Assembly: GCF_003334785.1 (NCBI RefSeq)
Contig: NZ_QOWV01000042.1
Source: Escherichia coli
GTDB taxonomy: Bacteria > Pseudomonadota > Gammaproteobacteria > Enterobacterales > Enterobacteriaceae
Length of the DNA stretch: 5,682 bases
Direction: 5' to 3' (one strand)
Each line of letters opens with the position of its first letter. The first letter of the stretch is position 1. The position numbers and the translations under genes were made by a program. The notes below the pieces were generated by a model that had not been told where the DNA came from, searched no databases, and worked only from the letters and a program-made list of their open reading frames with translations. This document shows, piece after piece, positions 69 to 5,100 of this stretch.

Positions 69-229
69 TGTTCATAATCTTCACTGACGCTAAAACTCTT
101 AACATTTTGTAGCATCTTATATTCGTACTTCAGCTTCTCTATTAACTCATTACTTAAATCATCAAGAGCATCATGGTCATATTTCGATGACATCAGATGC
201 GATTTTTTAATCATAAATCTGCCATCCAT
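1..229 (-). CDS. Acidic tandem-repeat protein, copy A, N-terminal part only (3' end beyond window start)
   Basis: ATG at 229-227 (minus) with SD AAGGAG at 241-236 and a 6-nt spacer, 13 nt after the stop of the upstream PIN-like gene. Hand translation of 229..2 is open throughout: MDGRFMIKKSHLMSSKYDHDALDDLSNELIEKLKYEYKMLQNVKSFSVSEDYEHLELNRYLDDEIKSLKTVSFGDD. The last residues are the first copy of the 25-aa repeat seen in full at 5101-5652. Not in the ORF track because it has no stop inside the window. Confidence 0.6.
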   Translation of the reverse strand, partial: MDGRFMIKKSHLMSSKYDHDALDDLSNELIEKLKYEYKMLQNVKSFSVSEDYEHLELNRYLDDEIKSLKTVSFGDD

Positions 230-242
230 ATGATACTCCTTC

Positions 243-1427
243 TTACTCTGTTATTGATGAAAGGATTGAGCTCATCTTCTGAATAGAAGATAACTTTCCT
301 TTCATTAGAAGTCTAATTTTAGCCATTATCTCAGGATCTGTCGCAGATTCTAGCTTTTTAGATAGACCAGCAATTTCTGCCTTTTCTCTTTTTATTCTGT
401 TTTCTAGGAGTGCTCGGTGTTCACTGTTGCTTGTGTTACTTCCAGCTCCATACCCATTCCCTGTTGAAATGTTGAGGTTTTCGGTGTTTATTTTAAGATC
501 GAATGCGTTGTTTATATTTAAGATTAGTTCTTTTGTGTTTATTACATCAAAAAATTGAACGCTTGAGTTATTTAGCATTTCCTCTCTTAATATAGCGTGA
601 ACGCCTTTGTTTTCTCTATTTTCTTTATCTCTACCAACTTTAAATATGAAGTCATCTTTTGCATCATTAGTGATTAGGAAAACGTTTTTCGCACCTGTTG
701 ATGCGGCATGCTCTAGAGTTTCTTTCCATATGTAGAAATCACCATAAGCTCTTTGATAAGTAATGCCGTCATAAGAGAATATATTGTCTGGCTTTCCTAC
801 CTTGTCTGCGTCACAGAATCCAGGGGGCGTTTTTAATTCATACCTTGATTTACATTCAGCATCTAATCCATTAATGTATTCTTGGTCCTTTTTTACGCCT
901 ATTTTTCCAGAGAATATGTTGTCAATCCATTCTCTATGTATGTCTTTTGTATTTAACTCATCAATTGATTCATTGAGTTTTCCATACATATCCTCTAGTC
1001 CTGAGTTTAATAAATCAATGGATTTTTTTATTAACTCAGATACTTGTCTGTTTAGCCCTTCGTAATGCCTTGCTTTGGAGTTGTTGCATTTTTCTAATAG
1101 TTTTGATGAATAAGATAATAAATCAACAACAGGAGATGTTGTTGTTGATATCAAGTGTTTCTGATCGTCGATAACCCCTAATCTTCTTCTCTGATACTCC
1201 AACGCAGTAAAATAAGGGAGATATATATTTTCTCTTATCTGTTCTATTGATTTCTTTATCGCAGATATTGTTTCCTGGTTGTTTCTATATAGGTCTAATA
1301 TGACATTGGTGTCAAAAACAAATAATGTATCATCTGCCCTGTATATATCAGGATTGTCCTTTATGTTGCCTGTATAAAATCCTTTAAACATATCCCTCAT
1401 CGACATAAAAAAGCCCCTATTATTCAT
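243..1427 (-). CDS. PIN-like (VapC-type) putative nuclease with a large internal insertion and a C-terminal coiled-coil tail
   Basis: Long minus-strand ORF (track 243..1493, stop TAA at 245-243). Contains FDTNVILDL (first PIN acidic motif), a conserved Glu in TALEYQ about 38 residues later, and LITNDAKDDF (the T-x-D-x-D-F motif typical of VapC/PIN) about 215 residues after the first Asp, implying an inserted domain. The track's first codon at 1493-1491 is TTG, not ATG. In-frame ATGs at 1472, 1427 and 1406 are alternatives; 1406 has a GGGG SD-like run 7 nt upstream. A perfect TTGACA on the minus strand at 1469-1464 could be a -35 element. The gene is strongly AT-rich compared with the plasmid backbone. 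Confidence 0.7.
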   Translation of the reverse strand: MNNRGFFMSMRDMFKGFYTGNIKDNPDIYRADDTLFVFDTNVILDLYRNNQETISAIKKSIEQIRENIYLPYFTALEYQRRRLGVIDDQKHLISTTTSPVVDLLSYSSKLLEKCNNSKARHYEGLNRQVSELIKKSIDLLNSGLEDMYGKLNESIDELNTKDIHREWIDNIFSGKIGVKKDQEYINGLDAECKSRYELKTPPGFCDADKVGKPDNIFSYDGITYQRAYGDFYIWKETLEHAASTGAKNVFLITNDAKDDFIFKVGRDKENRENKGVHAILREEMLNNSSVQFFDVINTKELILNINNAFDLKINTENLNISTGNGYGAGSNTSNSEHRALLENRIKREKAEIAGLSKKLESATDPEIMAKIRLLMKGKLSSIQKMSSILSSITE

Positions 1428-1530: not shown

Positions 1531-1542
1531 TTCTTCCTGTAA

Positions 1543-1646
1543 ACGAAAAAACCACCCTGGCAGGTGGTCTTTTCGAAGGTTAGATAATCCTGGCAGATTC
1601 TCTAACCGTGGTAACAGTCTTGTGCGAGACATGTCACCAAATCCGT
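1543..1646 (-). ncRNA. RNA I, antisense copy-number control RNA
   Basis: Minus-strand promoter with -35 TTGAAG (complement of 1682-1677) and -10 TACACT (complement of 1658-1653). Predicted start is near 1646. Intrinsic terminator is the hairpin at 1551-1568 followed on the minus strand by a U-run (complement of 1545-1550). Length is about 100 nt, as expected for RNA I. Confidence 0.75.
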
Positions 1647-1652
1647 CCTTTC

Positions 1653-1682
1653 AGTGTAGCCTCACTCAGGCCACCACTTCAA
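1653..1682 (-). promoter_or_regulatory. RNA I promoter
   Basis: Same hexamers and position relative to RNA II as in pMB1/ColE1 (TTGAAG, 18-bp spacer, TACACT). Confidence 0.7.
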
Positions 1683-2049
1683 GAACTCTCGATACATCTC
1701 TCGCACATCCTGTTTACCAGTGGCCGTTGCCAATGGCGATTAGTCGTGTCTTTTCGGGTTGGACTCAAGACGATAGTTACCGGATAAGGCGCAGCGGTCG
1801 GACTGAACGGGGGGTTCGTGCATACAGTCCAGCTTGGAGCGAACTGCCTACCCGGAACTGAGTGTCAGGCGTGGAATGAGAAACCGCGGCCATAACAGCG
1901 GAATGACACCGGTAAACCGAAAGGCAGGAACAGGAGAGCGCACGAGGGAGCCACCAGGGGGAAACGCCTGGTATCTTTATAGTCCTGTCGGGTTTCGCCA
2001 CCTCTGACTTGAGCGTCGATTTTTGTGATGCTCGTCAGGGGGGCGGAGC

Positions 2050-2060
2050 CTATGGAAAAA
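2050..2060 (+). other. Origin of replication (RNA II to DNA transition, oriV)
   Basis: The motif gcggagcctatggaaaaa lies about 520 nt downstream of the RNA II start, corresponding to the ColE1 primer processing and DNA start point. Confidence 0.65.
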
Positions 2061-2299
2061 GCGCCTGCGGCGCGGCCTTTTTCGGGGTTTCCGTTTTTGC
2101 GCACATGTTCTTTCCCGGGTTATCCCCGGATTCTGTGGATAACTGTGTTACCGTTTTTGTGTGAGTCAGTACCGCTCGCCGCAGCCGAACGACCGAGCGT
2201 AGCGAGTCAGTGAGCGAGGAAGCGGAAGAGCGCCGGAAGCTACATTTTCTCCTTACGCATCTGTGCGGCATTTCACACCCGGCATGGTGCACTTTTCAT

Positions 2300-2400
2300 A
2301 CCATCCGCACTGATGCTGCATGAGTAAGCCAGTATACACTCCGCTATCGCTACGTGACTGGGTCATGGCTGCGCCCCGACACCCGCAAGGTCAACGGCCT
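2300..2400 (-). other. bom / oriT (basis of mobility) with nic region
   Basis: taagccagtatacactccgctatcgctacgtgactgggtcatggctgcgccccgacacccgc is near-identical to the pBR322/ColE1 bom region and lies between ori and rop as in those plasmids. The nick is expected on the minus strand within the complement of taagccag (2325-2332). Confidence 0.7.
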
Positions 2401-2477
2401 GACGCGCCCTGACGGGCTTGTCTGCTCCCGGCATCCGCTCACAGGCAAGCTGTGACCGTCTCCGGGAGCTGTATGTG

Positions 2478-2669
2478 TCAGAGGTTTTCACCGTCATCAC
2501 CGAAACGCGCGAGGCAGCTGCGGTAAAGCTCATCAGCGTGGTCGTGAAGCGATTCACAGATGTCTGCCTGTTCATCCGCGTCCAGTTCGTTGAGTTTCTC
2601 CAGCAGCGTTAATGTCTGGCTTCTGATAAAGCGGGCCATGTTAAGGGCGGTTTTTTCCTGTTTAGTCAC
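2478..2669 (-). CDS. rop: Rop/Rom, RNA I-RNA II pairing modulator
   Basis: 63-aa ORF MTKQEKTALNMARFIRSQTLTLLEKLNELDADEQADICESLHDHADELYRSCLARFGDDGENL, recognised as the Rop protein. It converges on RNA II, as in pBR322. Confidence 0.95.
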   Translation of the reverse strand: MTKQEKTALNMARFIRSQTLTLLEKLNELDADEQADICESLHDHADELYRSCLARFGDDGENL

Positions 2670-2701
2670 TGATGCCTCCGTGTAAGGGGGGATTTCTGTT
2701 C

Positions 2702-3058
2702 ATGGGGGTAATGATACCGATGAAACGCGAGAGGATGCTCACCATACGGGTTACTGATGATGAACATGCCCGGTTACTGGAACGCTGTGAGGGTAAACAA
2801 CTGGCGGTATGGATGCGGCGGGTCTGCCTGGGTGAGCCGGTTGCCCGTTCCGGGAAGCTGCCGACACTGGCACCGCCGTTACTGCGCCAGCTGGCTGCCA
2901 TCGGGAATAACCTGAATCAGACAGCGAGGAAGGTGAACAGCGGGCAGTGGTCTTCCGGCGACCGGGTTCAGGTGGTGGCCGCACTGATGGCCATCGAGAG
3001 AGAGTTGCGCAGCTTACGGCAGGTCGTCAGGGGACAGGGAGCGCGGGATGATAGTTAA
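2702..3058 (+). CDS. mbeC: Mobilization accessory protein MbeC (MobC family, ribbon-helix-helix)
   Basis: Translation ...MLTIRVTDDEHARLLERCEGKQLAVWMRRVCLGEPVARSGKLPTLAPPLLRQLAAIGNNLNQTARKVNSGQWS... matches the ColE1-family MbeC fold. The 5' part is colinear with the mob remnant retained in pBR322. Start is uncertain among ATGs at 2702, 2711, 2720 and 2735; 2702 has an AAGGGGGG run about 10 nt upstream. The stop overlaps the mbeA start. Confidence 0.8.
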   Translation: MGVMIPMKRERMLTIRVTDDEHARLLERCEGKQLAVWMRRVCLGEPVARSGKLPTLAPPLLRQLAAIGNNLNQTARKVNSGQWSSGDRVQVVAALMAIERELRSLRQVVRGQGARDDS

Positions 3059-3424
3059 GTTTCATGCCAGGGGGAAAGGTGGTGGCAGTGGTCCGGTTGA
3101 TTACCTTCTGGGAAGGGAGCGTAACCGGGAAGGTGCAACGGTACTGCAGGGTAACCCGGAAGAAGTCCGGGAACTCATCGATGCCACGCCATTTGCGAAG
3201 AAATATACGTCCGGTGTTCTGTCGTTCGCGGAGAAGGAACTGCCGCCGGGAGGACGTGAAAAAGTTATGGCGAGCTTTGAGCGTGTACTGATGCCCGGTC
3301 TTGAAAAAAATCAGTACAGCATCCTGTGGGTGGAGCACCAGGACAAGGGACGGCTTGAGCTGAATTTTGTCATTCCGAACATGGAGCTACAGAGCGGAAA
3401 ACGCCTCCAGCCGTACTACGACCG

Positions 3425-3476
3425 GGCAGACAGGCCGAGAATTGATGCCTGGCAGACAGGCCGAGAATTGATGCCT
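3425..3476. repeat. Exact 26-bp tandem duplication inside mbeA
   Basis: Two perfect adjacent copies of ggcagacaggccgagaattgatgcct, followed by a further partial copy ggcagac. 26 is not a multiple of 3, so the duplication shifts the frame. Confidence 0.9.
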
Positions 3477-3761
3477 GGCAGACGCTGGTTAATCACCATT
3501 ACGGGCTGCATGACCCCAACGCCCCGGAGAACCGCCGGATACTGACTCTCTCTGATAACCTGCCGGAAACGAAACAGGCGCTTGCAGAGAGCGTCACACG
3601 CGGGATAGACGCTCTTTATCATGTCGGGGAGATAAAAGGCCGTCAGGATGTGATTCAGGCGCTCACAGAGGCAGGGCTTGAAGTGGTCAGGGTGACGCGA
3701 AGCAGTATCAGCATTGCAGACCCGAACGGTGGGAAGAATATCAGGCTGAAAGGAGCATTTT

Positions 3762-4292
3762 ATGAGCAATCTTTTACAGACGGGCGCGGAGTTCGAGAAA
3801 AAGCTGAAAGAGAGAGCCGAATCTACAGAGACAATGCTGAACGACGAGTTCAGGAAGCTCGAAGAATCTGTAAACAGGGAGCTGACCTCAAACGAATCTT
3901 TAATCAGGAACGCTATCAACGACCATACAGCAGCCCTGAAAGAACTTCTGGAGAGGTATCAGAAAACGACCGTCAGCACGATGGACACACACTGGCAAAC
4001 CGTGCTGAAAATGAGCGTGAAACGCTGGCTGTGGCTGATTATCGTCTCAGTACTGATGTTTGCCACGACCGGGAGTCTGCTGTGGTACCAGGGCATGAAG
4101 ATAAACGAGAATATGAATATTCTCCGCGAGCAGAAAGAGAGTCTGGAGAAGCTGAACGCGAAGACATGGGGCGTGCGTTATCACGAGGACAGCAACGGAC
4201 GTTTTCTGGTGTTGCCGAAGGGGATGAAAGCCGAAACGAACTGGACGAAGGACAACGGCAAACTGAACGCAGTGAGACTGGTGCAGGAGTGA
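3762..4292 (+). CDS. mbeB: Mobilization protein MbeB (nested within mbeA in an alternative frame)
   Basis: 176-aa ORF starting MSNLLQTGAEFEKKLKERAES with a hydrophobic segment WLWLIIVSVLMFATTGSLLW. RBS AGGAG is 6 nt upstream of the ATG. Overlapping arrangement inside mbeA is as in ColE1. Confidence 0.8.
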   Translation: MSNLLQTGAEFEKKLKERAESTETMLNDEFRKLEESVNRELTSNESLIRNAINDHTAALKELLERYQKTTVSTMDTHWQTVLKMSVKRWLWLIIVSVLMFATTGSLLWYQGMKINENMNILREQKESLEKLNAKTWGVRYHEDSNGRFLVLPKGMKAETNWTKDNGKLNAVRLVQE

Positions 4293-4298
4293 CAGAGC

Positions 4299-4532
4299 AT
4301 GACGGAGCTGGAAAGACATTTGCTGAACGCCTTAGAGCAACTGCAACAGGACTATATGCAGCGGCTGAACGAATGGGAGAGCGCCTTCGTGGAATTGCAG
4401 AAAATGTTTTCGCTTACGCAACGGGACAACGCGATGCTGAACGAGCGGGTCATGCAGTTGAGTCAGCAGGTGCAGCACTTGAGCGAGCGGACAGAACGCT
4501 TGAGCCAGTTATACAGCGAGAACAGGAGATAA
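4299..4532 (+). CDS. mbeD: Mobilization protein MbeD (nested within mbeA)
   Basis: 77-aa ORF MTELERHLLNALEQLQQDYMQRLNEWESAFVELQ..., predicted coiled coil. AGGAG lies 9 nt upstream of the ATG. Position immediately after mbeB is as in ColE1. Confidence 0.7.
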   Translation: MTELERHLLNALEQLQQDYMQRLNEWESAFVELQKMFSLTQRDNAMLNERVMQLSQQVQHLSERTERLSQLYSENRR

Positions 4533-4632
4533 GGGACGAACGGCTGATACAGGAGCGCGAACATGCGTTATCCCTGGAGCGTGAGCGCCAGCCGGAAATA
4601 CAGGAACGCACACTGGATGGCCCTTCGCTGGG

Positions 4633-4839
4633 ATGGTAATCAGAGACAGGCTAAAATGTTGTCAGCGCGTTTCCGGTGCATTTTTTGGGATAATGGTTGG
4701 TTCGGGGGCACCGGGAACGCGCTTCAGTCAGACCTTGCTGAAAACACAGGAACGCGTTAAAACGCATACGGGCGCGATTCTGGTGTATCTTTTGTTGCTG
4801 TGTTTTGCCGTTATTGCCAGATCGCGCTCATTCCCCTGA
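4633..4839 (+). CDS. Small hydrophobic protein, possible MbeE
   Basis: 68-aa ORF whose ATG overlaps the mbeA stop (ATGGTAA) and which has a hydrophobic stretch ILVYLLLLCFAVIA. No convincing SD. Assignment is by position only. Confidence 0.3.
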   Translation: MVIRDRLKCCQRVSGAFFGIMVGSGAPGTRFSQTLLKTQERVKTHTGAILVYLLLLCFAVIARSRSFP

Positions 4840-4879
4840 ATTTCTGTTTTTCCGCTCCGGTTCCGTCTTCTGCCTTTCC

Positions 4880-5090
4880 GAAAGTATGAAAAAAATCCGT
4901 TTCAGCAGTCTCTGGCTGGAAATTCCTGCGTGATTCACATGGCTGCATAGCTATGCATGTGGTTAAAATTTACCGGGTGCGATCGCGGCAGTTTTTCGGG
5001 TGGTTTGTTGCCATTTTTACCTGTCTGCTGCCGTGATCGCACCGAACGCGTTTCAGTGGTGCGTACAATGGGATGTTATGGTAAATGGCT
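4880..5090. other. cer-like XerCD multimer-resolution site with upstream accessory sequences
   Basis: Core ggtgcgtacaa-tgggatg-ttatggtaaat at 5058-5086 resembles the ColE1 cer XerC arm, central region and XerD arm. Upstream sequence gcggcagtttttcgggtggtttgttgccatttttacctgtctgctgccgtgatcgc and the palindrome tgcatagctatgca resemble the cer accessory and ArgR-box region. Confidence 0.7.
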
Positions 5091-5100
5091 CTCGCTAGTT

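Follow-up and report, generated by a model that had tools for sequence, protein, structure and literature searches.

The window analysed here, a 5,682-bp stretch of Escherichia coli DNA (contig NZ_QOWV01000042.1 of assembly GCF_003334785.1), is a small ColE1-type plasmid, and we examined its replication control region, in which the antisense RNA I and the pre-primer RNA II are encoded on opposite strands. RNA I lies on the minus strand and is recognised by the Rfam model RF00106 (RNAI), which matches in full (model positions 1-102) from 1645 to 1543 with 76.5 bits and an E value of 2.6e-13, the gathering score being 47. The transcript would be ~107 nucleotides (nt) long, running from 1646, a 5' end placed by homology to ColE1 (ACAGUAUUUGG), to about 1540, and it comprises the 5' tail ACGGAUU, three stem-loops and a U-run terminator. 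In the minimum free energy fold three hairpins and a free 5' tail are formed (ΔG −48.3 kcal/mol, z −6.95); none of 200 shuffled sequences folded as well, and the corresponding energies are −43.0 kcal/mol for ColE1 and −41.8 kcal/mol for pMUT1 of E. coli Nissle 1917. Stem-loop I (SL1, 1609-1639, minus strand) exposes the loop CGCACA at 1626-1621. Stem-loop II (SL2, 1578-1607, minus strand) carries the loop UGCCAG at 1595-1590, which is reduced to GCCA if a U·G pair closes it, and stem-loop III (SL3, 1544-1575, minus strand), the intrinsic terminator hairpin, repeats UGCCAG at 1562-1557 and is followed by UUUUUU. Nine diverse RNA I genes keep this three-hairpin structure, and at 9 of its 31 pairs the changes are compensatory; the window has the antisense RNA of ~100-110 nt with three hairpins and a single-stranded 5' tail that is typical of ColE1-type replicons.

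The promoters that presumably drive the two transcripts were assigned by homology. For RNA II the −35 hexamer TTGAGA (1502-1507) and the −10 hexamer TAATCT (1525-1530) are separated by a 17-nt spacer on the plus strand, and both hexamers and their spacing match those of ColE1 and of the verified pMB1 origin of pZE21 in an alignment. For RNA I the −35 hexamer TTGAAG (1682-1677) and the −10 hexamer TACACT (1658-1653), with an 18-nt spacer on the minus strand, are those of ColE1 and pMB1. An earlier note on this DNA, made from the letters alone, had described the promoters as ColE1-like, which the alignment bears out. A generic consensus scan for σ70 promoters and terminators left 1400-2300 without any promoter call and also missed the RNA I terminator; as these known, non-consensus promoters fall short of its strict thresholds, we placed them by homology to ColE1 and pMB1.

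RNA II is predicted to start at G 1539 and to reach the A-run at 2056-2060 on the plus strand (1539-2060, about 517-521 nt), as both its start context (GTAAACGAAAAAACC) and its origin context (ATGGAAAAA) are those of ColE1. The distance from the start to the A-run is 552 nt in ColE1, in agreement with the known ColE1 primer of ~555 nt, versus about 517 nt in the window, so that RNA II would be about 35 nt shorter. Within it, the upstream G-run GGGGGG (1809-1814, plus strand), which corresponds to about −265 in ColE1, is embedded in a segment (1761-1839) with 96% identity to ColE1. According to Masukata and Tomizawa this G-run reportedly contributes to the persistent RNA-DNA hybrid in ColE1, and the G-run of the window may aid such a hybrid in the same way. 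The origin core on the plus strand (2038-2060) consists of a second G-run (2038-2043, about −20) and the A-run at 2056-2060, where RNase H cuts and the switch from RNA to DNA takes place; the 38-nt context of the A-run (TTGTGATGCTCGTCAGGGGGGCGGAGCCTATGGAAAAA) is identical to that of ColE1. An RNA II promoter 500-555 bp upstream of the origin, together with G-runs and an A-run, is thus found in the window as in other ColE1-type replicons.

Essentially the same plasmid has been sequenced from E. coli ECOR 10 as RCS83_pIII (NZ_LT985292.1, 5912 bp). It is 99.9% identical to window 1543-5621, matches 1-260 and 1480-1542 perfectly, and has the same RNA I, rop, broken mbeA and PIN-like gene; it differs in length (5912 versus 5682 bp), in the number of 75-bp repeats in a repeat-protein gene and in window 5622-5682. 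The rop (rom) gene (2478-2669, minus strand) encodes 63 amino acids (aa) and its translation is identical to ColE1 Rop, the RCS83_pIII and ColE1 records both carrying the Rop family protein WP_000165985.1. A Rep initiator gene was found neither among the open reading frames (ORFs) of the window nor among the RCS83_pIII annotations, and the plasmid conforms in this respect, too, to the ColE1 type, which has no plasmid-encoded Rep initiator and optionally Rop. One entry in the RCS83_pIII record deserves comment. An 84-nt coding sequence named 'replication initiation protein' (198-281, minus strand, equivalent to window ~1740-1823) lies inside the non-coding origin, and RefSeq/PGAP annotates such tiny genes in several of these plasmids, including the ColE1 record (784-942). 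As ColE1 replication requires no plasmid-encoded initiator, this entry looks like an annotation artefact, one that could mislead automated typing.

The specificity of such a replicon is expected to reside in the loops of RNA I, and we compared those of the window (CGCACA / UGCCAG / UGCCAG for SL1 / SL2 / SL3) with the classical references. The loops are CUGCUGA / UUGGUAG / UUGGUAG in ColE1 (NC_001371, verified), CUGCUGA / UUGGUAG / CUGGUAG in pMB1, CCUCCA / UUGGUAG / CUGCAA in p15A, CCUCCA / UUGGUAG / UUGGUAG in NTP16 (NC_002090), a relative of RSF1030, and CUGCGAA / UUCCCCAA / UCCCCA in CloDF13 (NC_002119, verified). The pMB1 entry is a pBR322 sequence that proved 100% identical over 251 nt to pZE21 (NZ_CP035489, assembly GCF_004135125.1); the p15A entry is 100% identical to a sequence in the pACYC-bearing Rosetta2, BL21-RIPL and BL21(RP) assemblies. 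NTP16 takes the place of RSF1030. An RSF1030 segment (pRSF origin) had no 100% match among the matches listed; NTP16, which is verified, is 97.3% identical to that segment, as is pOSAK1. This comparison, which the earlier note had proposed, gave the following result: all three loops of the window differ from those of every reference, and none is held in common. The difference from pBR322 that the earlier note had described is thereby real, and the loops are identical neither to those of pMB1 nor to those of ColE1. The window does not belong to the ColE1/pMB1 loop specificity (CUGCUGA / UUGGUAG / (U/C)UGGUAG), nor to that of p15A, RSF1030/NTP16 or CloDF13, RSF1030 being represented by NTP16 and the pRSF origin segment only. 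Apart from the loops, the window has in common with ColE1/pMB1 the predicted replication mechanism, the layout, Rop, the origin-core context and the RNA I promoter hexamers, and its Mbe mobilisation genes are homologous. With p15A, NTP16 and CloDF13, each a natural specificity variant compatible with ColE1, it shares the three-hairpin architecture of RNA I, and the lower stem of SL3 and the CGAAGGUU linker are similar to their counterparts in p15A and CloDF13.

Loops II and III are alike in most types of RNA I and contain the same core of 6-9 nt, which occurs twice in the window (CUGCCAGG), in ColE1 (GUUGGUAGC), in RCS83_pII (CUUGCCGG) and in CloDF13 (UCCCCA). This sameness may reflect concerted evolution or a kinetic benefit from two equivalent kissing sites.

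The same loop set is found in pMUT1 of Nissle 1917 (NZ_CP058218.1; pMut1, NZ_CP035488.1), which like the window has a ColE1-type origin with Rop. The RNA I of pMUT1 is 97% identical to that of the window, with the same three loops and the same SL1 throughout; SL1 is also identical in p52 of enterotoxigenic E. coli (ETEC) H10407 and in RCS83_pI. The two RNAs differ in the 5' tail (ACAGUAUU in pMUT1, ACGGAUU in the window), in one base of the SL2 stem and in one extra G in SL3. The backbones are distinct: pMUT1 carries NikA/MobA (MOBF typing) and different cargo, whereas the window has Mbe/MOBP genes, and the Rop of pMUT1 is a different protein accession. Besides pMUT1, the pMut1 copy of strain NissleGFP_pZE21, ETEC p52, Salmonella pSH1148_4.8, E. 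coli pEM06-18-14_1, Enterobacter p12795_3, a 2495-bp Enterobacter plasmid and a 5429-bp Shigella plasmid have the loop set of the window. We thus assign the window to this pMUT1-type loop specificity, which has no formal name.

This type is widespread. A megablast search of PLSDB with 1543-1646 returned 478 records with at least 95% identity, from Escherichia, Klebsiella, Enterobacter, Salmonella, Shigella, Citrobacter and other genera, and 245 of 5426 complete E. coli genomes contained an RNA I match (251 records, 182 of them, from at most as many genomes, with at least 95% identity). All eight sampled plasmids with an RNA I at least 95% identical carry the loops of the window, and in matches at 84-93% one or two loops are swapped. 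The different ColE1-like subgroup that the earlier note had suggested is thus correct as regards a distinct loop set, but it is not a new one: the feature is an ordinary, common and already sequenced RNA I variant of the pMUT1 type. Little new biology is involved, the plasmid being in public databases already and its RNA I type long known from pMUT1.

We consider it very likely that this region, with its pMUT1-type loops, serves as the module by which an antisense RNA controls copy number and incompatibility in a ColE1-type replicon, RNA II-primed and Rep-independent. Following the mechanism established for ColE1, RNA II would be transcribed from near 1539 on to the origin near 2058, where it would form a persistent hybrid with the DNA, be cut by RNase H and prime DNA polymerase I, so that replication would depend on host RNA polymerase, RNase H and DNA polymerase I. 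RNA I, whose predicted sequence is the exact complement of the ~107 nt with which RNA II begins, would contact the nascent transcript through its three 6-nt loops, which 'kiss' the complementary RNA II loops in a complex stabilised by Rop; the 5' tail of RNA I would then nucleate the full duplex, and RNA II would be blocked from adopting its primer-competent fold. Because recognition begins at the loops, these would set which plasmids cross-inhibit each other, so that incompatibility is to be expected between the plasmid of the window and pMUT1-type plasmids, and compatibility with replicons of the ColE1/pMB1, p15A, RSF1030/NTP16 and CloDF13 types.

The identity to ColE1 (NC_001371) varies strongly along the origin. 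It amounts to 63% in 1575-1650 and 67% over RNA I (1543-1646), versus 81% in 1500-1542, 79% in 1651-1760, 96% in 1761-1839 and 92% in 1920-2075, making the pairing region the most diverged part of the origin. Flank identities were taken from ColE1, as the values for pZE21 beyond 1760 (57-63%) were set aside; we tentatively attribute this poor alignment to the extraction of the segment from a 1978-bp record, and the RCS83_pII column of the comparison, which failed in a similar manner, was set aside likewise. The claim of the earlier note that the pairing region has diverged within a conserved origin is hence confirmed, with some corrections. The string it quoted is present in the window but lies at 1583-1648 and not at 1575-1650; the terminator hairpin, described there as ColE1-like, is not simply conserved, as the SL3 loop at 1557-1562 has diverged as well; and the downstream origin is conserved in 1761-1839 and 1920-2075 but not in between, where 1840-1919 is only 72.5% identical to ColE1. 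This second divergent block, located inside RNA II downstream of RNA I, is 71% identical to pMUT1 and 97.5% identical to the 2495-bp Enterobacter plasmid; we also take it to resemble p15A. The block is further evidence for a recombinational mosaic.

Judged by these identities, the origin is a mosaic of blocks, RNA I being 97% identical to pMUT1, 1840-1919 being 97.5% identical to the Enterobacter plasmid, and 1920-2300, rop and the mob genes being ColE1-like. In pRHB38-C24_6, whose backbone comes closest to that of the window (93% identity over 1541-5086), RNA I is just 68% identical and its loops are CCUCCA / UUGCCG / CUGCAA. The control module was apparently acquired or exchanged by recombination and lies in an otherwise ColE1-like backbone with Rop, the origin core and the Mbe genes. 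The loops themselves point in the same direction: among 20 RNA I sequences (17 of them taken from records) there are 11 different loop sets, built from four alleles of SL1, four of SL2 and five of SL3, and for two SL1 and two SL3 alleles all four combinations are present. Such combinations are better explained by recombination among ColE1-type plasmids sharing a host than by stepwise drift. We tentatively propose, while rating it somewhat below an even chance, that the stem-loops of natural ColE1-type RNA I are reassorting modules, as the three co-resident plasmids of ECOR 10 also suggest, and that recombination among plasmids in one host is the main source of new incompatibility specificities. 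If this were true, the window would be one such exchange product, a pMUT1-type control module in a ColE1/Mbe backbone.

The alternative that fares best concerns this history and leaves the mechanism untouched: the pairing region may have changed step by step where it stands, through point mutations favoured by diversifying selection for a new specificity, instead of being imported as a module by recombination. Single-base changes in the loops do alter incompatibility, as cited in PMC9458437, and some loop alleles, such as UGCCAG and UUGCCG, are few changes apart. The block-like identity profile (RNA I, 1840-1919, 1920-2300) and the quite different RNA I of a relative with a 93%-identical backbone speak against gradual change, and CGCACA and CCUCCA each occur with UUGCCG as well as with other alleles. 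As four combinations of multi-nucleotide alleles argue for recombination, we regard divergence in place as unlikely.

The expected specificity can be examined at the level of the loop duplexes. RNA I loops fix incompatibility, and single base changes can alter specificity (PMC9458437, PMC8683028). For RNA I-RNA II loop duplexes between the window and ColE1 or pMB1, calculated in both directions, the summed energies range from −4.9 to −12.0 kcal/mol, where the cognate pairing gives −39.1 kcal/mol, the incompatible pair ColE1 and pMB1 −39.3 kcal/mol and the classically compatible pair ColE1 and p15A −17.4 kcal/mol. In assembly GCF_004135125.1 (E. coli NissleGFP_pZE21) pMut1, which has the loops of the window, is present together with the pMB1-type vector pZE21 and without stated selection for pMut1. 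In the five-week mouse study with this system, a preprint by Crook et al. (10.1101/364505), the mutation summary of the in vivo-adapted isolates draws both native plasmids as well as pZE21. For the predicted incompatibility with pMUT1, the one supporting observation is that constructs with a pMUT1 origin displace pMUT1 (PMC11056357). In the pMUT1 literature that we searched the plasmid is called 'ColE1-like', and no compatibility test with pMB1 was found.

A second case of co-residence is ECOR 10 itself, which harbours three ColE1-type, Rop-encoding plasmids with three different loop sets: RCS83_pI (CGCACA / UUCCCCAA / UCCCCA), RCS83_pII (CCUCCA / UUGCCG / UUGCCG) and RCS83_pIII, which has the set of the window. 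RCS83_pI and RCS83_pIII have an identical SL1 and different loops II and III, a one-loop overlap that mirrors ColE1 and p15A, where one common loop causes no incompatibility. ECOR 10 offers a ready natural system for asking how many loops in common are tolerated. Plasmid p58 of ETEC H10407, considered as a possible co-resident ColE1-type partner of p52, encodes a Rep protein and was left out as an example of co-residence. The duplex energies and the co-residence of pMut1 with pZE21 and of the ECOR 10 plasmids indirectly support the interpretation, put forward as a possibility in the earlier note, that the window represents a specificity group separate from and predicted to be compatible with pMB1/ColE1.

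Several points weigh against this interpretation. Chaillou et al. 2022 report that compatibility cannot always be read from the divergence of the loops alone (PMC9458437), and the sum of duplex energies is a crude proxy for kissing kinetics. In the pMut1/pZE21 strain pZE21 was kept by kanamycin (10.1101/364505), so that co-residence there means that pMut1 was not displaced and constitutes an asymmetric test. For the plasmid of the window the RNA I gene, its structure, its loop sequences and their distribution are established here; we infer transcript ends, mechanism, copy-control activity and compatibility, and the three differences from pMUT1 RNA I outside the loops (5' tail, SL2 and SL3) could modulate cross-reaction between the two.

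It might also be argued that the plasmid functionally still belongs to the ColE1/pMB1 incompatibility group, with residual cross-reaction through common stems and a similar 5' tail. Parts of the stems and an AUUUGG tail are indeed common to ColE1, the imperfect prediction of compatibility from loop divergence (PMC9458437) would allow for it, and in papers on Nissle pMUT1 is often treated as 'a typical ColE1 origin' and the strain cured of it because incompatibility is feared. Moreover, MOB-suite places RCS83_pIII in the replicon cluster of ColE1, rep_cluster_2350; this cluster, however, reflects the overall similarity of the origins and not the RNA I loops. None of the three loops is held in common, the loop pairing with ColE1/pMB1 is weaker than even that of the compatible pair ColE1 and p15A, and pMut1, with loops identical to those of the window, was found alongside pZE21 both in the sequenced strain and in the isolates from the mouse study. 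We therefore consider continued membership in the ColE1/pMB1 group quite improbable. For ColE1-like plasmids, replicon typing by MOB-suite clusters should not be read as incompatibility grouping. The pMUT1-type module is a natural, very widespread origin and coexists with a pMB1-type vector in a sequenced strain, which is of practical value when several plasmids are engineered together or E. coli Nissle is the host.

That the divergence merely reflects decay, leaving a degenerate or weakened control region on a plasmid maintained by other means, is barely credible: the relaxase gene on the same replicon is broken by a 26-bp duplication, a sign of some decay, and the generic promoter scan was empty in the region, but the RNA I of the window folds more stably than that of ColE1 or pMUT1, the promoter hexamers are those of ColE1 (RNA I) or match those of pMB1 (RNA II), the stem changes are compensatory, no alternative Rep gene is present among the ORFs and annotations, and conservation of RNA I at 95% identity or more in 478 PLSDB plasmids from many genera is incompatible with decay.

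Outside the origin, the RCS83_pIII annotation and the ORFs of the window agree on a small set of genes, namely rop, genes for a MobC-family accessory protein, a truncated relaxase, MbeB and MbeD, and genes for a PIN-like protein and a repeat protein. The relaxase gene (start at 3048) contains a perfect 26-bp tandem duplication at 3425-3483, with 2.3 copies of GGCAGACAGGCCGAGAATTGATGCCT. It shifts the reading frame of the MbeA-type relaxase, resulting in a 165-aa product, and removal of one copy in silico restores an ORF of 521 aa. RCS83_pIII has the same duplication, while the relative pRHB38-C24_6 has a single copy. The plasmid of the window can probably no longer be mobilised.

As cargo the plasmid carries two genes that form a unit on the minus strand (243-1472 and 5101-5652). 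The first gene (243-1472) encodes a 409-aa PIN_8 protein (PF18476, E 1.4e-41), and the second (5101-5652) a protein of 25-aa repeats (…LNRYLDDEIKSLKTVSFGDDHEL…) that derive from 75-bp tandem repeats at 5125-5621. A PADLOC search with both proteins matched no family; in an NCBIfam search the PIN_8 protein had no match and the repeat protein gave only matches under the curated cut-off. The unit could be a defence or addiction module. The repeats are present in 6.6 copies in the window, and the version of the protein in RCS83_pIII has 309 aa with roughly 11 repeats. At the end of the window, 5622-5682 is a diverged copy (~80% identity) of the 5' region, at about 23-145, of the repeat-protein gene, which in RCS83_pIII adjoins the PIN-like gene. 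Joining the ends of the window as they stand would shorten the upstream copy to about 40 codons. The repeat array may have collapsed or been rearranged in this assembly, or this may be a genuine variant.

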